A stretch of 24,000 bases of DNA from Ignavibacteria bacterium (GCA_049700455.1 JBNAVJ010000007.1:70397-94396), one strand, 5' to 3'; shown: positions 5,692 through 22,025, counted from the stretch's first letter. Translations and numbers: made by a program. The notes: generated by a model from the letters alone, not told the origin.

Positions 5692-5763
5692 TACCCCGTA
5701 GAGGATTCGAACCTCTAAAGACAGATCCGTAGTCTGCCGGTTTATCCATTAGCCTAACGGGGC
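5692..5763 (-). tRNA. tRNA-Arg (anticodon ACG)
   Basis: The reverse complement folds as GCCCCGT TA GGCT AATGGATA AACC G GCAGA CTACGGA TCTGT CTTT AGAGG TTCGAAT CCTCT ACGGGGT A. The anticodon loop is CT-ACG-GA. The acceptor stem has a G1-U72 wobble pair. The D- and T-arms are identical to those of the CCG isoacceptor at 1391-1462. Confidence 0.85.
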
Positions 5764-10141: not shown

Positions 10142-10215
10142 TGGGTCAGGGAGGAATCGAACCTCCCACCTCGTGCTTATAAGGCACGCGCTCTAACCGT
10201 CTGAGCTACTGACCC
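10142..10215 (-). tRNA. tRNA-Ile with genomically encoded anticodon UAU (TAT)
   Basis: The reverse complement folds as GGGTCAG TA GCTC AGACGGTT AGAGC G CGTGC CTTATAA GCACG AGGTG GGAGG TTCGATT CCTCC CTGACCC A, with all four stems perfect. The body (GTAGCTCAG..GGTTAGAGCGC..GCCT.ATAAGC..GAGGT) is that of bacterial tRNA-Ile. Positions 34-36 read TAT. Confidence 0.8.
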
Positions 10216-14844: not shown

Positions 14845-15666
14845 CTAACTCCCCACCCCTTCTGATGAATCAAGTATAGATTTGAGAGACTTCGTAACAC
14901 TCTGGTTACTCATAGCATCTCTTAATTTTGACTTAAACTCATTCAGATCCTGTAAGAGATACAATTTCCCGTCCTCTGCAATTGAGATATTGCCTGTCTC
15001 TTCTGATATGATAATTGCAATAGCATCTGACTGTTCACTAATCCCAAGTCCAGCTCTGTGTCGCGTACCCAAATTACGATTATTTACCAATTGAACTTCC
15101 GAAAGTGGTAAGACACATCTTGCGGCTTCAATCTTATTTCCATTAATAATAACAGCCCCATCGTGTAGAGGTGATTTAGGATAAAAAATACTTACAAGCA
15201 ATTCTTTATTTATTCTTGAATCAAGTTTTTCTCCGGTTTCTACTATATTTTGTAATCCTGTTGTCCTGGTTATCACTATCAGAGCACCCCAACCGTTACT
15301 CTGTATTTCAAGACAGGCATCGACAACTTCAGTAACATTTTCGTTAAGGTCGATTCTTAAAAATAAACGTGCAAATTTTGACCTTCCTATTAATAACAAA
15401 ATTCTTCTAATCTCAGGTTGGAAAAGTATTATCATTGCAATTACCCAGATATCTGTAACTTTTCCAAGAATCCAACTCATTACCTGTAAGTTTAATGCCT
15501 GCGCAATAAATGATATACTCAATATCAAAATTATAGCAGTAAAAATTTGAAATGCCATTGTACCTCTCATTACCTTGTACAGTTTATAAAATACATAGGT
15601 AATAATAAGTACATCTATAATATCAACGAGCTTTATTGTTAGAAAGCCAATTTTAAATAGTTCCAT
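14845..15666 (-). CDS. cdaA: Membrane-anchored diadenylate cyclase (c-di-AMP synthase), CdaA/DacA type
   Basis: 273-aa ORF with three N-terminal hydrophobic helices followed by a DAC (DisA_N) domain. Motifs are GALIVI, LHDGAVII and GTRHRAGLGISEQSDAIAIIISEETG (the catalytic DGA and RHR motifs). Confidence 0.9.
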   Translation of the reverse strand: MELFKIGFLTIKLVDIIDVLIITYVFYKLYKVMRGTMAFQIFTAIILILSISFIAQALNLQVMSWILGKVTDIWVIAMIILFQPEIRRILLLIGRSKFARLFLRIDLNENVTEVVDACLEIQSNGWGALIVITRTTGLQNIVETGEKLDSRINKELLVSIFYPKSPLHDGAVIINGNKIEAARCVLPLSEVQLVNNRNLGTRHRAGLGISEQSDAIAIIISEETGNISIAEDGKLYLLQDLNEFKSKLRDAMSNQSVTKSLKSILDSSEGVGS

Positions 15667-15697: not shown

Positions 15698-17074
15698 TTA
15701 ATGTGCTGACCTGCCTTTGGGCAGAGTATTCCATAATCTACTCATAACCAGCGCTCCAATAATAGCAAAGGGGATAGGCCAGAGTTGCCATGCCTGCCAG
15801 CCTAACGGGAAAATGAAAACACTCAAGAAAAATGGATTCAGCGCACTGGTCAAGTATTGAAATCCATCAATTAATCCTGCTGCGGTAGCTGCTGCTTTTC
15901 TTCCTCCAAAATCCATCGAAGCGGCTCCCCCTACCATCCCGTGGGCGCCATTTACGAAAAATGATAACAACATTATTAAAGCTGATGCAGCATATGGTCC
16001 GAATTTAAAATAATCAGAAAGAAAAAATAATAGAAGGCTAACTACCATTCCAATAAATCCAAAAACAATCACCGGAGCTCTCCTGCCACCATAAATCCTA
16101 TCCGAAGTAATTCCAAAAGCAAATCCCCCTAAAATACCTAATATTGCAATTCCCCATGCTGTTACCTGATAAGCGGTATCAATTGTTGATACACTATATA
16201 CCTCTTTAAAATATAAGGGATACCATGCATCAACAACGCTACGTCTTACAAAACCAATCATCATAGAACTAACACCTATCATCCACATTACAGGACTTGC
16301 AAAAACTTTTGTTAAAACTTCCTTCAGACTGACTTTTTCATTACTCATATCATCACCATCCCCGGTATCTCTTCCCTCATAACCGGCTTCTTTAGGAGAA
16401 TCCTTCACAAAAAAAATCGTGAGTAAAAATACAACTGTCGTTAAAGCTGCCGGTCCCCAAAATGCCCATTGCCAGCCAAACCAATATGCGAATAAAGGAG
16501 TACCTGAAAAAGCAAGAATTAATCCAAAACGAATTAGAATACCAAATATAGCAGCAAATGTTCCTCTCTCTCGTATATGAAACCATTGAGCATTGATTTT
16601 CACAATTGACAATGCGCCAAACGCCTGAAAATACCCATTTAAGGACCAACAAATTGCAAGCAATACCAATAAAAGTTTTTTATCTCCCCACGCAAGAACA
16701 CTCGGCTTTATAAGATTTGAATCCTGCCAAACAGCAGGTTGTAAAACAGCAAATCCTGCAGCGCCAAAAATAAAATTCATTAAAATAACACCAACAGAAC
16801 CGATTAGAAAAGCTTTTTTCCCACCTATCTTATCTGCAATAGGTCCATTTAGCACGACTGCAAGTCCATACACAAGGGGCAAGAGAGTTTCAAATATGCC
16901 AAGATCACTTTTAGTCCATCCGAACACCTGCTGCAAAGTCGGGGCATTTGCAGCAAAATTGTATCTTGTCATATAAAAAAGCGAGTATAAAAACCCTATA
17001 ATAATCCAGTTCTGAAAACGACGGGCTCGATAGGCAGGTTCTCTGAAATTTGCAGGAATTACCACTTCTGTCAT
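15698..17074 (-). CDS. MFS transporter, organophosphate:Pi antiporter (OPA; GlpT/UhpC-like) family
   Basis: 458-aa ORF with about 12 predicted hydrophobic helices. The N-terminal region YRARRFQNWIIIGFLYSLFYMTRYNFAANAP......W.KSDLG.......L.YG......G.IADK resembles GlpT/UhpT (YRRLRWQIF.G.F.GYAAYYLVRKNFALA) by recollection. The substrate cannot be called. Confidence 0.65.
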   Translation of the reverse strand: MTEVVIPANFREPAYRARRFQNWIIIGFLYSLFYMTRYNFAANAPTLQQVFGWTKSDLGIFETLLPLVYGLAVVLNGPIADKIGGKKAFLIGSVGVILMNFIFGAAGFAVLQPAVWQDSNLIKPSVLAWGDKKLLLVLLAICWSLNGYFQAFGALSIVKINAQWFHIRERGTFAAIFGILIRFGLILAFSGTPLFAYWFGWQWAFWGPAALTTVVFLLTIFFVKDSPKEAGYEGRDTGDGDDMSNEKVSLKEVLTKVFASPVMWMIGVSSMMIGFVRRSVVDAWYPLYFKEVYSVSTIDTAYQVTAWGIAILGILGGFAFGITSDRIYGGRRAPVIVFGFIGMVVSLLLFFLSDYFKFGPYAASALIMLLSFFVNGAHGMVGGAASMDFGGRKAAATAAGLIDGFQYLTSALNPFFLSVFIFPLGWQAWQLWPIPFAIIGALVMSRLWNTLPKGRSAH

Positions 17075-17290: not shown

Positions 17291-17620
17291 TTAATAAGAT
17301 TCTCGATCATCAGAAAATCTTGCCACAATCTTTTCTCTTATAAATGCAGGTGAAGGAATACCTTCTGGATAGTAACGACAGGAGAGTGTTGGATATACCG
17401 GTGATTCTACCCCTATTAGGTCTTCATTATTTATTAACAAAGTAGGGGATCCTCTAAATTTATATTTGACCGCATCTTCCTGGTCTTTAATAAGCCGATA
17501 AATAACATCAATAAAATCTTCAAGCCCTTTAATAGCTTCTTTTAAATTATCCATCATAATCTGATAGTTAGGGCATCCTTCAAAATATTGAAATTCCACT
17601 TTTAGTTTTGGCTGTACCAT
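17291..17620 (-). CDS. Small thioredoxin-fold protein with a single-Cys C-P-N-Y active-site-like motif
   Basis: 109-aa ORF. The pattern is beta-strand + GCPNY (FQYFEGCPNYQIMMDNLKEAI), then F.GSPTLLINNEDL (cis-Pro-like SPT), then LSCRYYPEG.PS. This recurring Y..GCPN...GSPT...CR.Y arrangement is a small Trx-like family that I recall being vaguely or wrongly annotated. It is the last gene of the 4-gene operon, 18 nt after the previous stop. Confidence 0.5.
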   Translation of the reverse strand: MVQPKLKVEFQYFEGCPNYQIMMDNLKEAIKGLEDFIDVIYRLIKDQEDAVKYKFRGSPTLLINNEDLIGVESPVYPTLSCRYYPEGIPSPAFIREKIVARFSDDRESY

Positions 17621-17638
17621 ATATTTATTTTTATATTT

Positions 17639-18985
17639 TTACGGTTTATTAATGTCTGTTCTCCCTATCCAATTATAATCATCAAATGAACTAAAAAGTT
17701 CCTGAAATATCTTATAGTAATAATATTCCTCTTTTGAATTAATTTCCCATCCGTTTTTCAATACACGATTTTTTCTAAAATCTTCATCTTTAATTATCTC
17801 GTTACAGTAATATTCAAGTTTATTCTCAACTCCACTACCCTGCCACAATTTCTGCTTTGGTCGCTTAATAATATAGATTGGTAATATGTGTTTAAGGGTC
17901 TCTTTTAAAATCCATTTCTCGGTTTTATTCTTAATTTTAAGTTGAGGACTAATATTTTTTACATAATCTACTACTTCCCTGCATAAAAAAGGGACATAAG
18001 TTCTCACACCAAAAGCTGCCGAACATCTATCAACCCGTTGCAATGCGGTATTGTGTAAATTATAAAATATCAATTGAAGTTCTTTTTCTAACTTTTTGTA
18101 TGTAAGTTTCTGTAAGTAATAATATCCTGCAAAAAGTTCGTCAGCACCTTCACCAGAAAGGATTGCCTCAACATATTCAGCAGCCTTACGTACTGCAAGA
18201 TAATGTATCAGACTTGATCTTATAAGCCTCGCATCGAAAGACTCAAGGTGATAAATTACCTGAGGTAAAATCTTTACAACTTCATTAATTTCAGCTTTAA
18301 TTGGGTAATAAGTAATTTCAAACTCTTTTGCAAGTCTTTTACTATACTCCAGATCGCTTGCTCCAGCAAAACCGCACGAAAATCCATAAATTTTATCTGT
18401 AAATTTGCGAGCAAATGCTACTATTGTGCTTGAATCAAGTCCCCGCGATAATAAAATTCCTATTGGTTTTTCATTAGTAATACATTTCCTTATTGAATCT
18501 TCAAGCAAGCTATAGAGTCGGCTTTTTATCTGTTCAATATCTTCCTGGTTATATTTTAATGTCCTGAATATATCTAACAGCTTTTTAACTTTGCCCTTAA
18601 CAATTACCCCGCCCGGCGGGACGGGTCTAACATTTTTAACAAAGCCCATCAACCCTTTAACTTCAGACGCAAAATAAAGGTTATTTTCCTCATCATATCC
18701 AAAATATATGGGCACAACCCCAGCAAAGTCACGATTTAGATTAATCGTACCATCGATTTCTTCTGCTTTAGCATAATGTTCTCCGGGCAAGAGTTCATCA
18801 ATAACTTTATATTTGTTTGTTGGGTTTTCTCGAATGCTGTTTTCTGCCGTATTAACTGATACACCCAGTGTGGAGTGAGAAGTAGAAAATACTTCAATTT
18901 TGTTCCACCGATGTTTCATTTTGGTTAACATTGAACTAACAAGTTCTCCTCTATCAGGAAGTGAAACACCCGCTATTGCACCCAT
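17639..18985 (-). CDS. Asparagine-synthetase-B-family adenylating enzyme (beta-lactam-synthetase-like paralogue); glutaminase nucleophile absent
   Basis: 448-aa ORF. The C-terminal synthetase domain has a PP-loop region ILLSRGLDSST (canonical SGGLDSS), plus LSGEGADELFAGY and later blocks. The N-terminal Ntn domain is shortened. It begins MGAIAG instead of MCGIxG and keeps RDFAGVVPIYFGYDEENNLYFASEVKGL. The start lies 2 nt after the stop of the upstream gene. Confidence 0.8.
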   Translation of the reverse strand: MGAIAGVSLPDRGELVSSMLTKMKHRWNKIEVFSTSHSTLGVSVNTAENSIRENPTNKYKVIDELLPGEHYAKAEEIDGTINLNRDFAGVVPIYFGYDEENNLYFASEVKGLMGFVKNVRPVPPGGVIVKGKVKKLLDIFRTLKYNQEDIEQIKSRLYSLLEDSIRKCITNEKPIGILLSRGLDSSTIVAFARKFTDKIYGFSCGFAGASDLEYSKRLAKEFEITYYPIKAEINEVVKILPQVIYHLESFDARLIRSSLIHYLAVRKAAEYVEAILSGEGADELFAGYYYLQKLTYKKLEKELQLIFYNLHNTALQRVDRCSAAFGVRTYVPFLCREVVDYVKNISPQLKIKNKTEKWILKETLKHILPIYIIKRPKQKLWQGSGVENKLEYYCNEIIKDEDFRKNRVLKNGWEINSKEEYYYYKIFQELFSSFDDYNWIGRTDINKP

Positions 18986-18987
18986 AG

Positions 18988-20631
18988 TTATTTATTGATG
19001 ATTATTTGTTTAAGACGTTTTTCTTCAGAGAGTATTTCTCCTGTTTCAGGATCGATAGCGTACCAGGCACCATTGATAAGATTTGTTTTGATATTGCCAC
19101 ATAAATGTTCGTTGCCACGAAAATGTGGCGTGTCAAGTATACCTATTTTAATAGCATCAGCAAGAACCCCTGCATCAGTTAAGGGATCTTCAGCTCTTCC
19201 ATCTCCCAATTTTACAATAGCCTCAATTAAGGTCTCGGCTTCAGATATTAATTCATTTTTTCTATTTATTATTAATTTGTCATCTTTAATATCAGGTAGA
19301 TCTCTCGCAACATTTTTAATAACTCCATAAACAATATTGCAACTTTCTATAAGTTCCTCCGGATAAACAGCATGGTCGCCTTCACAATAAGCTACTACAT
19401 GTAATATGTGCGGTTTCAACCATAGACTTACCATTGCTGATGCTGCAAGTTGCCCCTTTGCGATTTCCGGATTCGGTGAAAAATGAGCGATTCCAGCTCT
19501 AACTTCTCTAAAAACTTCAAAATCATTACTGCTTAGTCGATTTATCATTTCATCCTTTGCCTTCATCTTAGCAAGGTCCATTCTTGGAGAAGTTCCTGGA
19601 GGAGTGTTAAACATATATTGTGAGACATAGTGTTTAACTCCCACTTTCTTTGCATTATAAGCAGCTATGTAAGCCATTGCAACAGCCAGCGAATCATGGG
19701 CATCTCTCAAACTCCACTGATGAGACTCATTAACTTCAACCGGAATTCTTCGTTCAGCATAATATTTCATTACTCGTTGGTTCTCAGAAATAGCTTCTTT
19801 AAGTAACCTCTCAGAACGTTTATCCATTACGCTATACCAGGTTAGAGGTATAGCAGCCCAGGCATTATTTATTGTTTCAATACTCATTTTCGCCCATTTC
19901 ATCAGGTCGTTTGTGCCACTATAGCATCTCATTAAAGGGAAATTTCCTGTTCGTGATTCTTCATAGATTCTCTTTAAATCCTCTGGTGTTCGTACAGGTA
20001 CTCCTCCAGCCCCATCAAGTTCCTTTCTCATCCGTTCAGGTTTGAAGAAAAATTCCTGTGCATTTTGATCAGTTCCAAGTGAAATTACATCAAGGACTTT
20101 TGCTTCAGCAATTTTTTTGACACCTTCTATTGTTTCTCTTAAAGAGGGTCTTCCAAAATGATGCCTTAAAATCGGGAGTGGATAGCGGTTGCGTATTCTT
20201 TCTACCAATGTTTGAGGATAAGTTTGACTGACATCTTTTCCAGTGGTGCCCCTAAGATATTCCCTTATAGAATCAATGCTTTCGGTTCCATCAAATACTT
20301 TCTCAAAGAAGGATTTTTTTCCTGCTACTTTTGCTACTGATGGCGTCCCTCCAAATATAAATTTAATATTGTTAATGCTTCTTTTCTTAACCTCCTTTAT
20401 CAATTCATCAAAGAGTGTTTCAGCAACTGAAGGAGTAAGGCGATAACTAATTGCTACAATTGCTGGTTGTAATTTTTCAACTTCTAAAACTAACCTACTA
20501 ACTTTCACAGCCGGACCAAGAGAGTACGTCCTAAAACCTTCTTCTTCAGCAATCGAAAGAAAATGATTTAAACCCCCTATATGGACACAGTTACCCAGTG
20601 CACATCCAAGTATTAGTTTGTTACCTTTCAT
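18988..20631 (-). CDS. Fusion protein: N-terminal cobalamin(B12)-binding domain + C-terminal glutamate-mutase epsilon (methylaspartate mutase E)-like barrel; putative B12-dependent carbon-skeleton mutase of unknown substrate
   Basis: 547-aa ORF. Residues 1-~130 match the MutS/GlmS B12-binding domain motif for motif and with almost the same spacing: xxHxxG (CVHIGG, His17), S-x-L (ISYRL, ~62) and GG (IFGGT, 94-95). In my recollection of Clostridium MutS these fall at His16, SSL 61-63 and GG 91-92. The remainder shows collinear blocks with GlmE: ILRHHFGRPSLRETIEGVKKI~QPRAGVALLDEHIELLRYL, VLDVISLGTDQNAQE~GADFLPSTIDAYTRQ and FPLMRCYSGTND~LPLQARHGTPD. There is no CxxxCxxC motif, so it is not a B12-radical-SAM enzyme. 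Confidence 0.6.
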   Translation of the reverse strand: MKGNKLILGCALGNCVHIGGLNHFLSIAEEEGFRTYSLGPAVKVSRLVLEVEKLQPAIVAISYRLTPSVAETLFDELIKEVKKRSINNIKFIFGGTPSVAKVAGKKSFFEKVFDGTESIDSIREYLRGTTGKDVSQTYPQTLVERIRNRYPLPILRHHFGRPSLRETIEGVKKIAEAKVLDVISLGTDQNAQEFFFKPERMRKELDGAGGVPVRTPEDLKRIYEESRTGNFPLMRCYSGTNDLMKWAKMSIETINNAWAAIPLTWYSVMDKRSERLLKEAISENQRVMKYYAERRIPVEVNESHQWSLRDAHDSLAVAMAYIAAYNAKKVGVKHYVSQYMFNTPPGTSPRMDLAKMKAKDEMINRLSSNDFEVFREVRAGIAHFSPNPEIAKGQLAASAMVSLWLKPHILHVVAYCEGDHAVYPEELIESCNIVYGVIKNVARDLPDIKDDKLIINRKNELISEAETLIEAIVKLGDGRAEDPLTDAGVLADAIKIGILDTPHFRGNEHLCGNIKTNLINGAWYAIDPETGEILSEEKRLKQIIINK

Positions 20632-20642
20632 TTTTGTATAAA

Positions 20643-21752
20643 TTATATTTCCCCAATAGCTAATAGCCTTAATTGTTTCAAACTCAATTTATTGATATTA
20701 AGTCTTTCCACTGTCCTGCCTTCTTTCCAATAATCAGTCTGAGTTAAACAGGATGCCAGATTAATTATAGAATCAATAATTGGTGTCTCAACATTAAACT
20801 TCCTCCCAACAGAAGAAATCGGTATCAAACTTGTCGGGACATCTTCCGTAATAAATCTCATATTTAACCTTGTAGGAGCTTTTATATCCCTATATCCTGG
20901 ATTTGCTTGCATTGCCTCGTATAAGTGTTCTCCTGCTGCATTATAAGCAAGATATAACCATTCCCGGGCTGTCAGAGCTCTAATACCAAGCGCCTCAGCA
21001 ACTTTGACTCTTTCTTCATCAATCTTTTCCAGGACTTTAGCAACAGACCTTGATACACCCTGAACATAAAATTGAAATTCAGCATCGTCTTCAATCCATC
21101 CTGCATTCAAGACGCACAAAGCAGGATGAAAAACAGCTCCAATATTATCAAAACTTGTTTTAAAAATATTATCACCCGCCACAAACTGAGGGTATGCAAT
21201 TCTGATTCTCTTTAGAACTTCAGGAATCAAATGCGCCCGAACAGAAGCAACAGGAATACTGTTTTTTATACGAAAAATCTTTGCTTGAGCAGGACCAATT
21301 ACGCGGGAAGCGTAAATAAATGTTTGTGCCTCAGCAACTATCACATTCCTGTCAACATTATGAGAATTTAACACTTGTTGAAATTCTAAAGCACCAAATG
21401 TTCTCCCTGGATTTAATATTATAATTTGTCCATCCTCTAAATAAGGATAACATAGCTCTGCAATATCTCGATGCCCCGTTGCAGGAACAGCAACCATTAT
21501 AATATCTACACCAGTAATAGCCTCCTCTATATTTGTTGTAGCAACAGGAATTTTACCAAAACCTTCAAGCCCAAAATCACTTTCAATTCTCACACCCCCC
21601 ATTGAAATTACACCCCACAACCGTTCACTGGTTCGGTTAAAAAGATGCACCTCAAACCCCATTAAAGCTATGTGACCTGCCATAGCTAACCCCCCATGCC
21701 CAGCACCTATAACAGCAAATTTAGGTTTCTTTTTTGATGAGACTCTCTCCAT
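20643..21752 (-). CDS. Opine dehydrogenase-family NAD(P)H oxidoreductase (octopine/nopaline DH family; N-(1-carboxyalkyl)-amino-acid forming)
   Basis: 369-aa ORF with an N-terminal Rossmann motif FAVIGAGHGGLAMAGHIALMG. By recollection it is collinear with Arthrobacter N-(1-D-carboxyethyl)-L-norvaline dehydrogenase: IIILNPG..GALEF, the conserved catalytic-region His in NIGAVFHPA, and the C-terminal block NPGYRDIKAP.RLN.RF..EDVPT.L.P.S..GR...V.TP.ID....L.S......D...EGRT.E.L. A strong SD GGGAGG lies 4 nt before the ATG. Confidence 0.85.
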   Translation of the reverse strand: MERVSSKKKPKFAVIGAGHGGLAMAGHIALMGFEVHLFNRTSERLWGVISMGGVRIESDFGLEGFGKIPVATTNIEEAITGVDIIMVAVPATGHRDIAELCYPYLEDGQIIILNPGRTFGALEFQQVLNSHNVDRNVIVAEAQTFIYASRVIGPAQAKIFRIKNSIPVASVRAHLIPEVLKRIRIAYPQFVAGDNIFKTSFDNIGAVFHPALCVLNAGWIEDDAEFQFYVQGVSRSVAKVLEKIDEERVKVAEALGIRALTAREWLYLAYNAAGEHLYEAMQANPGYRDIKAPTRLNMRFITEDVPTSLIPISSVGRKFNVETPIIDSIINLASCLTQTDYWKEGRTVERLNINKLSLKQLRLLAIGEI

Positions 21753-21774
21753 ATTCCCTCCCGTAATTTATCAT

Positions 21775-21803
21775 AATCTAAAATAATTTTATTAAAATGG
21801 CAA
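21775..21803 (-). promoter_or_regulatory. Candidate promoter of the opine-DH/mutase/AsnB-like/Trx-like operon
   Basis: The minus strand reads TTGCCA (21803-21798; 5 of 6 match to TTGACA), a 17-nt spacer, then TAGATT (21780-21775; 4 of 6). This lies about 22 nt upstream of the ATG and just before the GGGAGG SD. It sits in the 273-nt divergent region shared with scpA. Confidence 0.35.
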
Positions 21804-22025
21804 GAATAAGAAGAGAAGTTTTTTATAAAGTCTCTGTACCCTAATATGTTAATTCAAATCAATAAACTTTATTTATAACTTATATATTAGATTACTTGAA
21901 CAAAATTAGCATAAGGCTATGTTTAGATACAACAACTTAAATATTTCAATAAATAAAACTAAAATTTTGTCTGATATGCTTTTCTGAATTTAAATTGTAG
22001 TCTGCATTTGTTATCTTAATACTTT

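Follow-up and report, generated by a model that had tools for sequence, protein, structure and literature searches.

We describe a conserved gene module built around an opine dehydrogenase (ODH) and a putative B12-dependent mutase, found in a 24,000-nt stretch of an Ignavibacteria bacterium genome (GCA_049700455.1 JBNAVJ010000007.1:70397-94396). This whole stretch is referred to below as the window, with positions counted from its first letter. The core of the module is a pair of genes encoding the ODH and a 547-aa protein in which a B12-binding domain is fused to a glutamate-mutase-E-like domain, often accompanied by a gene for an amide-forming enzyme. Its product is probably a small acidic compound of unusual structure, derived from an amino acid by way of a B12 enzyme. 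In the window these three genes are followed by a fourth:

20643..21752, minus strand, opine dehydrogenase gene (369 aa; Pfam Octopine_DH match)
18988..20631, minus strand, fused B12-binding/glutamate-mutase-E-like gene (547 aa; PF02310 just under cutoff; fold match)
17639..18985, minus strand, AsnB-like gene (448 aa; Asn_synthase match; truncated, cysteine-less N-terminal domain)
17291..17620, minus strand, small thioredoxin (Trx)-like gene (109 aa; matches below cutoff; CPNY)
21757..21762, minus strand, Shine-Dalgarno sequence GGGAGG, 4 nt before the ODH ATG, read from the sequence

A first-pass annotation had described these as four co-directional genes with gaps of 11, 2 and 18 nt behind the GGGAGG element. 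The coordinates, when re-read, match, and the genes do form a tight co-directional unit amid housekeeping genes. Its family assignments hold as well, for the ODH and the AsnB-like protein by Pfam matches (Octopine_DH, 154 bits; Asn_synthase, 188 bits) and for the B12/mutase fold by structure comparison.

Synteny was evaluated in 82 fetched loci with relatives of the 547-aa protein. The ODH gene is directly beside the mutase gene in 75 of these, often overlapping it, an arrangement far beyond chance; the seven loci with no visible ODH gene are contig ends, six with the mutase at the contig start and one (L054) that stops 110 nt past the mutase. An AsnB-like gene is present in 54 of the 82 loci, and neither the Trx-like gene nor the major facilitator superfamily (MFS) transporter gene that lies downstream in the window is found in any. 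The conserved core is therefore the two-gene ODH-mutase pair, which the amide-forming enzyme joins in about two thirds of loci. Many genomes have the ODH and mutase alone, and Rosettibacter firmus keeps only the trio. The full order, scpBA followed by ODH-mutase-AsnB-109aa-MFS-cdaA, was found only in the close relatives L087 and L088 (mutase identity 87%). Thus the earlier expectation of synteny in related genomes stands for the ODH/mutase/AsnB-like trio, which recurs across phyla, and fails for the four-gene unit, which is restricted to those two relatives.

The 547-aa family is large: the candidates scored fall into more than 6,500 clusters at 90% identity, there are 695 clusters at the 50% level, and relatives are encoded by at least 590 species genomes. 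Its thousands of members carry no annotation beyond ‘methionine synthase’ or ‘cobalamin-binding protein’. Hosts span at least 10 phyla and include Ignavibacteria, many Bacteroidales, Acidobacteriota/Aminicenantes, Clostridia (Thermoanaerobacter, Tepidanaerobacter, Fervidicola and Maledivibacter), Armatimonadota, Planctomycetota, Nitrospirota, Hydrogenedentota, Desantisbacteria and Anaerolinea, with one archaeal host, a Methanomicrobia metagenome-assembled genome (MAG). Judged by their record titles, these hosts look like anaerobes.

The ODH is the member of the pair whose chemistry can be placed most closely. It matches Octopine_DH (PF02317) at 154.2 bits against a cutoff of 30 (E 3.3e-45), and PDB entry 1bg6, the Arthrobacter CENDH, with an E-value of 4.8e-74. 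The glycines of its nucleotide-binding GxGxxG motif (G16, G18 and G21) are invariant among 74 mutase-linked ODHs, as are the catalytic residues H209 and D304 and the 2-oxo-acid-binding R299, all three of which align with their counterparts in ArODH. Six hot-spring enzymes of this family (mODHs) were characterised by Telek et al. 2024 (PMC10787698). Unlike all earlier ODHs they favour L-aspartate, L-glutamate and their sulfonate analogues, with pyruvate and mostly NADPH; the acidic preference is set by Arg111 and Gly198, and NADPH use by Arg35, in ArODH numbering (PMC10787698). The equivalent residues R117 (ArODH 111), G205 (ArODH 198) and R40 (ArODH 35) are present in 74 of 74 mutase-linked ODHs, and the same specificity residues recur in ODHs that accompany more distant relatives of the mutase. 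The window ODH is 46-52% identical to the assayed mODH-45, mODH-47 and mODH-48, despite optical character recognition errors in the sequences taken from the paper. Judged by these residues, it is of the true opine synthase type and belongs to the acidic L-amino acid:pyruvate, NADPH-using mODH subclass.

The assayed enzymes can be traced to the module itself. The closest UniProt entry to mODH-45 is E8MYZ6, at 93% (PMC10787698), and the transcribed mODH-45 sequence shares 92% identity with an Anaerolinea thermophila protein (P0272). The P0272 gene is separated by 72 nt from one whose 546-aa product has 45% identity with the window mutase. The assayed enzymes therefore stem from this module. In the paper the mODHs are treated as biocatalysts, with no account of genomic context or physiological role, and 3-methylaspartate is absent from its supplement (PMC10787698).

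The 547-aa protein consists of a B12-binding domain (approximately residues 1-130) followed by a glutamate-mutase-E-like TIM barrel (approximately 140-547). The first of these scores 31.5 bits with PF02310, just under the cutoff of 32.1, and sequence searches of Pfam, NCBIfam and PDB, with the single sequence and with a 22-sequence profile, found nothing beyond the B12 domain. The barrel was recognised from structure. An AlphaFold2 (AF2) model built from 22 homologues has a pLDDT (per-residue confidence) of 91.6, and its best PDB matches by Foldseek are the GlmE chains 6h9e_B and 1cb7_B (E 1e-16; TM 0.58 and 0.65), followed by lysine 5,6- and ornithine 4,5-aminomutases and acyl-CoA mutases.

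For residue comparison with glutamate mutase we used glmS, glmL and glmE of E. coli O157 Sakai, the C. cochlearium sequence from the PDB alignment and an alignment of the GlmE family. More distant relatives of the window mutase, at 33-38% identity, are fused to a MutL/GlmL reactivase domain and are here called subfamily B; the reactivase is fused in distant relatives only and is absent from the window. With the subfamily-B relatives added to the profile, hhalign against the GlmE family gave a probability of 81% (E 1.2e-5, 421 columns), a level reached only with that addition: a 24-sequence profile gave 6% against the GlmE family, the comparison with a single GlmE sequence gave 3%, and pairwise phmmer of mutase relatives against GlmE gave nothing useful.

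In that alignment D89/D96, the G-T-x-D motif after beta-3, W167 and Y177 are kept. The adenosyl-ribose ligand E330 of GlmE corresponds to E417, conserved in 22 of 24 sequences; GlmE K326 is not kept, and Y181 becomes K271. The glutamate-binding residues are replaced (R66 by H158, R100 by Q192 and R149 by Y237), as is the base for the amino group, E171, by P262; at an alignment probability of 81% these positions may shift by one or two, and there is no Glu in the E171 region. With R66, R100, R149 and E171 all replaced, the rearrangement of Glu to 3-methylaspartate that had been proposed for this protein is not borne out. The family has invariant basic residues of its own, at R145, R156, R214, R235, R272, R378 and R457.

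The cobalamin motif also differs. Residues 14-20 read N-C-V-H-I-G-G, that is C15xH17xxG20, with Cys in place of the Asp of DxHxxG. C15 is near-invariant (22 of 24 sequences), as are H17 and G20, and Ser62 and G94-G95 are kept; E. coli GlmS and subfamily B keep the canonical DxHxxG at these positions. Met_asp_mut_E (PF06368) has no match to the window mutase at E <= 0.01. One relative (P0137) does match it, at 27.5 bits against a cutoff of 26.6, and a relative matching Met_asp_mut_E is fused to an ATP-grasp ligase.

The 547-aa protein is most likely a B12 mutase with the glutamate-mutase fold, as modelled, and its cofactor would be adenosylcobalamin. Because the four GlmE residues are absent and CxHxxG replaces DxHxxG, it probably represents a new mutase family distinct from glutamate mutase. 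Its substrate is probably a polycarboxylate, the candidates being glutamate bound in a different way or the tricarboxylic N-(1-carboxyethyl)glutamate.

Subfamily-B mutases (approximately 35% identity) are also paired with Octopine_DH genes bearing the same R/G residues (L090 2450-11706; L092 2766-5744). The source names of subfamily-B relatives pointed to no function. An assignment of subfamily B to 2-methyleneglutarate mutase was considered and dropped, because in that enzyme the B12 domain is C-terminal. A DUF2202 gene lies beside the module in Anaerolinea (L083 8320-9093) and also beside a MutL-fused mutase relative on an unrelated contig (L091 7827-8699), a recurrence that may be coincidence or may point to a shared accessory protein.

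The third enzyme resembles asparagine synthetases. It matches Asn_synthase at 188 bits (E 5.2e-55) and, in PDB, AsnB (1ct9, E 4.8e-47) ahead of beta-lactam synthetase (E 6.4e-12) and CarA (E 2.3e-11). It falls below the NCBIfam AsnB equivalog NF006949 (286 against a cutoff of 499) and has a weak NCBIfam match to the NAGGN amidotransferase TIGR03104. Residues aligned with AsnB R324, E348, D351, E352, Y357, R387 and K449 are invariant in 53 orthologues (R324 here is R325 of the literature, our index being one lower). Three other AsnB residues, K376, D384 and T322, which bind aspartate in that enzyme, are replaced across the orthologues (in the window, K376 by I and D384 by A), which fits an N-substituted substrate.

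The window protein had been called a glutaminase-dead AsnB paralogue, and this is upheld: it starts MGAIAG, without the Cys2 nucleophile, and GATase_7 scores 20.8 against a cutoff of 25. The same holds for most of the family, since 44 of the 53 orthologues start M[AS]G and their glutaminase is on that account dead. The other nine start MCGI or MCGL and are 40-60 residues longer, and so are real glutamine amidotransferases. At one locus (L086) the place of the AsnB-like gene is taken by other enzymes of amide formation, the ODH being accompanied by a mutase::ATP-grasp fusion and a Peptidase_C26/class I glutamine amidotransferase (GATase); in two more (L065 and L076) the operon includes a short gene for a Ddl-like ATP-grasp protein. 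From the Cys-bearing orthologues, the ATP-grasp/GATase swap and the Ddl-like genes, the third step appears to be ATP-dependent amidation of a carboxylate with ammonia, and not lactam closure. The beta-lactam-type closure entertained earlier is thus unlikely, given the nine MCGI/MCGL orthologues and the replacement in L086.

The window copy of this enzyme has peculiarities of its own. Its PP-loop reads SRGLDS (G181R), where 52 of 53 orthologues have SGGLDS and the nearest relative SGGLDSS, and G27W gives HRW for the HRG motif. At 8 of 76 highly conserved columns it departs from the family residue, more often than any other of the 53 orthologues, and it is only 69% identical to its closest relative, against 87% for the neighbouring mutase. 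These deviations may reflect relaxed selection, altered function or sequence error.

A regulatory setting came from the leaders of the module in other bacteria. In an Rfam scan meant for T-boxes, the cyclic di-AMP (c-di-AMP) riboswitch RF00379 was found directly 5′ of the ODH gene in six of eight Firmicutes loci (100-111 bits), and no T-box or amino-acid riboswitch was found in the eight Firmicutes leaders. A second Rfam scan and nhmmer added L078, L082, L076, L055 and L064 (Armatimonadota). Altogether RF00379 is present at nine loci, scoring 96-116 bits (gathering score 38), and two more were added by nhmmer, for 11 loci from Firmicutes, Armatimonadota and unclassified hosts:

L077 8665-8796, RF00379
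L057 7313-7487, RF00379
L073 8577-8749, RF00379
L079 2118-2282, RF00379
L063 8616-8750, RF00379
L081 8601-8768, RF00379
L055 7349-7480, RF00379
L076 8766-8902, RF00379
L064 250-382, RF00379
L078 and L082, c-di-AMP riboswitches added by nhmmer

All nine RF00379 matches in the 282 kb scanned sit immediately 5′ of the module, whose gene order in L055 and L064 is AsnB-ODH-mutase. The L077 leader runs from a promoter-like site through the aptamer to a hairpin terminator with a T-run, after which comes the ATG, and similar terminators follow the aptamer in other loci. In Dehalobacter a c-di-AMP riboswitch, in tandem with a Na+ riboswitch, controls ablA, which encodes the aminomutase for the osmolyte N-acetyl-beta-lysine (PMC9337991). 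No report of a riboswitch-ODH-mutase association was found in the searched literature.

Neighbouring genes have a similar flavour. In a Desantisbacteria MAG, genes for a CBS-domain protein and a Na+/H+ exchanger separate the mutase gene from the AsnB-like gene (L066 11622-13291), and a CitMHS transporter begins 3 nt after the mutase in L055 (11653-12942). Genes for MscS, CLC and a 741-aa AA_permease occur near the module in Bacteroidales. In the window itself cdaA, for the c-di-AMP synthase, lies two genes downstream of the module.

We propose the following pathway. The ODH would couple an acidic L-amino acid, of the glutamate or aspartate type, reductively to pyruvate with NADPH, yielding an N-(1-carboxyethyl) opine. 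Radical chemistry with adenosylcobalamin would let the mutase rearrange the carbon skeleton in the part that comes from glutamate; whether it acts before or after the ODH, the same branched product would result, for example N-(1-carboxyethyl)-3-methylaspartate. The AsnB-like enzyme would then activate one carboxylate by adenylation, and ammonia would turn it into a carboxamide. We expect the product to be a small, free solute that is inert in metabolism, and the module to be turned on by a fall in c-di-AMP. The opine-forming activity has been measured in the homologues at 46-52% identity. The cofactor form, the substrate and product of the mutase, the site of amidation and the physiological role are what we infer. 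The mutase step is suggested by the modelled fold and by the relatives of the enzyme, and free glutamate would not be bound as in GlmE; the amidation step is suggested by the synthetase residues, the Cys-bearing orthologues and the ATP-grasp plus GATase replacement.

Riboswitch control in related bacteria and the ion-homeostasis neighbours are the reasons for assigning the module an osmotic or ionic role. That it makes an opine-type compatible solute or K+ counter-ion serving osmotic and ion homeostasis is, taken as a whole, a model to which we give a little less than an even chance. The more specific proposal, that an amidated N-(1-carboxyethyl) branched acidic amino acid is a novel solute of anaerobes from more than 10 phyla and belongs to a c-di-AMP osmotic regulon, is plausible and held more tentatively still.

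Several observations weigh against the solute model. No Rfam family or c-di-AMP riboswitch was found in the window leader or in seven other loci, with long leaders, of the Fibrobacterota-Chlorobiota-Bacteroidota (FCB) group, so that the regulatory link is borrowed from other phyla, and the osmotic neighbours in Bacteroidales are not independent observations, since the genomes are related. The assayed mODHs are slow, with kcat approximately 1 per second and Km for aspartate of 0.5-25 mM (PMC10787698), which suggests that the native amino-acid substrate is outside the panel tried in that paper. The loss of the GlmE residues for glutamate, set out above, is a further difficulty, and the window AsnB-like protein may be impaired by its aberrant PP-loop. 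Finally, c-di-AMP riboswitches govern cell-wall genes too (PMC9337991), a subfamily-B mutase, an ODH and an ATP-grasp ligase occur together inside a surface-polysaccharide cluster (L090), and Ddl, a PBP5-type carboxypeptidase and Lgt are encoded near the module in Firmicutes loci.

The last three points suit another product, a cell-envelope building block in which an opine-type acid is amide-linked to peptidoglycan, surface polysaccharide or a lipid head group. N-(1-carboxyethyl) amino acids are known in some enterobacterial O-antigens. The riboswitch evidence could serve this explanation too, cell-wall remodelling genes being under the same control (PMC9337991). The L090 glycan cluster surrounds its mutase, ATP-grasp and ODH genes with Bac_transf, GT1, SDR, DegT aminotransferase and FdtA genes, in L092 another subfamily-B mutase has just an ODH beside it, a Bac_transf gene precedes the Anaerolinea pair, and the Ddl-like ATP-grasp genes of L065 and L076 could be read in the same light as the Ddl, PBP5 and Lgt neighbours. 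However, most loci of the window's own subfamily (subfamily A) have no glycosyltransferase or Mur-type gene nearby, the genomes with ODH and mutase only have no attachment enzyme, the Cys-bearing AsnB-like orthologues and the GATase variant argue for ammonia as nucleophile and hence a free carboxamide, and ion-transport genes lie within the operon in L055 and L066. An envelope role seems to us unlikely, though worth keeping in view. Metal acquisition, by a staphylopine-like opine metallophore or some other secreted molecule, is very unlikely: the ODH-family enzyme CntM is reported to finish staphylopine-type synthesis (bioRxiv 10.1101/641969; PMC7438024), the predicted product is an aminopolycarboxylate and would be a good chelator, and a CitMHS gene (metal-citrate type) follows the mutase in L055 and an MFS gene lies downstream in the window, yet no CntL-like, metal-uptake ATP-binding cassette, TonB or exporter gene is conserved with the module, which is controlled by c-di-AMP and by no metal regulator and sits amid housekeeping genes in many phyla.

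Ordinary metabolism offers further candidates. The module might be a fermentative redox sink, in which the ODH would restore NAD(P)+ by joining pyruvate reductively to an amino acid, as happens in anaerobic invertebrates, or might take part in branched-chain (isoleucine-type) biosynthesis or glutamate fermentation via a methylaspartate-like intermediate. The hosts are all anaerobes or fermenters by title, and marine-invertebrate ODHs are reported to act as terminal pyruvate reductases; glutamate mutase opens the methylaspartate route of glutamate fermentation, and glmS-glmL-glmE of E. coli O157 adjoins methylaspartate ammonia-lyase. A redox sink would have no use for ATP-consuming amidation, though, and a kcat of approximately 1 per second is too slow for a main fermentation route, while an amino-acid pathway is countered by the absence of adjacent methylaspartase, mesaconase or citramalate genes and of the glutamate-binding residues in the mutase. 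For both, the riboswitch is of the c-di-AMP type and not a T-box or amino-acid riboswitch, and we consider this family of explanations improbable. Hardly credible, in our view, is a pathway to a beta-lactam or other lactam by AsnB-like cyclisation, or the catabolism of an imported opine. The AsnB-like protein lacks Cys2, as do beta-lactam synthetase and CarA, to both of which it is weakly similar, and beta-lactam closure of an N-substituted aspartate is conceivable in principle. Yet it is far closer to AsnB than to either, nine orthologues retain the glutaminase nucleophile, L086 substitutes ATP-grasp and GATase, and vertical conservation of the module extends to at least 10 phyla, in housekeeping surroundings that lack resistance, export and uptake genes. 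Catabolism, which the first-pass annotation had rated equally possible, fits poorly with the NADPH preference, the ATP-using amidation and an OFF-type c-di-AMP riboswitch.

Under the solute model, the module can be set beside several known systems. Glutamate mutase (GlmS/GlmE of C. cochlearium and E. coli O157) shares the B12-binding Rossmann domain and the TIM barrel, and its His ligand and SxL/GG elements are kept in the window mutase. The two subunits are however fused there, with the B12 domain first, and the partner of the window-type enzyme is always an ODH and never methylaspartate ammonia-lyase. The window ODH has the catalytic residues of the mODH subclass and of Arthrobacter CENDH/ArODH, and the specificity residues of the mODHs. 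In logic the module parallels AblA/AblB, in which a radical mutase makes an unusual isomer, a second enzyme caps its charge, and transcription is shut off by c-di-AMP via an RF00379 riboswitch. In the module, by contrast, the mutase is B12-dependent with a glutamate-mutase fold instead of a radical-SAM/PLP aminomutase, and capping would be by reductive carboxyethylation and amidation instead of acetylation.

Asparagine synthetase B and AsnO, of the NAGGN osmolyte pathway, share the Asn_synthase domain and the carboxylate amidation proposed here; compared with AsnB, the window protein has no N-terminal Cys, a shortened N-terminal domain and replacements at K376 and D384. Staphylopine synthesis by CntL/CntM likewise includes an Octopine_DH-family maker of an N-(1-carboxyalkyl) amino acid. 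Opines with an amide group are known from crown gall (heliopine/vitopine, succinamopine). Unlike these two systems, the module has a B12 mutase, and has no CntL, metal transport genes or Ti-plasmid context.

In the window the module is flanked on one side by divergent scpA/scpB and on the other by an MFS-cdaA-PCMT-rpsL-rpsG-fusA-tuf block, of which the first two genes are:

15698..17074, minus strand, MFS transporter gene, organophosphate/anion type (GlpT/PgtP-like, OPA; MFS_1 E 3.9e-37)
14845..15666, minus strand, cdaA, diadenylate cyclase (c-di-AMP synthase; TIGR00159 234.8 bits against a cutoff of 188.8)

The MFS gene begins 216 nt downstream of the Trx-like gene and its product matches TIGR00881 at 156 bits, under the cutoff; cdaA follows after 31 nt and encodes DAC and CdaA_N domains (Pfam). 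The MFS-cdaA order downstream of the module is also kept in L087 and L088. A sigma-70 scan, with 22 sites against 28 in shuffled sequence, gives no information on the plausible promoter of the first-pass annotation. The leader between scpA and the ODH gene (21753-22025) has a 68-nt insertion relative to L087 and L088 (alignment columns 137-204), and approximately 55 nt beside scpA are near-identical in all three. Three tRNA genes on the minus strand (1391-1462, 5692-5763 and 10142-10215) lie amid ribosomal-protein and elongation-factor genes.

The Trx-like gene is a lineage-specific passenger outside the conserved module. Its product stays under the cutoff for the NCBIfam DF family (seleno)protein (51.9 bits against 70; E 5.8e-14) and for Thioredoxin_3 (18.1 against 24.8), matches PDB 1ilo at E 0.04 and 1fo5 weakly, has CPNY at the CxxC site, and gave a pLDDT of 41 in a single-sequence AF2 model. 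A thioredoxin-fold gene follows the module in two independent cases, the window and an Armatimonadota locus (L064 4937-5326); the latter copy is a canonical thioredoxin under the riboswitch, the window copy a CPNY monothiol. These neighbours, two cases only, may indicate a redox link to the Cys-containing B12 motif.

Each of the enzyme superfamilies is known. Their combination, the Cys-His mutase family, a role for the mODHs and the c-di-AMP link are absent from the searched literature, which agrees with the first-pass statement that no characterised pathway of this composition is known; searches for opine osmolytes and for ydaO-linked opine dehydrogenases likewise returned nothing relevant. 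To our knowledge very few B12-dependent carbon-skeleton mutase reactions have been described, and the 547-aa family is probably a new mutase of this kind, with an obligatory partner, the ODH subclass, whose chemistry is known. The riboswitch link offers a testable physiological setting, osmotic or potassium homeostasis in anaerobes, and for many of the hosts, among them Ignavibacteria, uncultured Bacteroidales, Anaerolineae and Aminicenantes, we know of no described osmolyte synthesis. If the proposal is true, a new metabolite would come to light, together with a new reaction of an adenosylcobalamin mutase whose Cys-His cobalamin motif is unusual, and the c-di-AMP regulon would gain a member. 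Two large protein families would have their annotation corrected, bacteria would be credited with a new class of osmolyte, and bacterial opine dehydrogenases with a physiological role.

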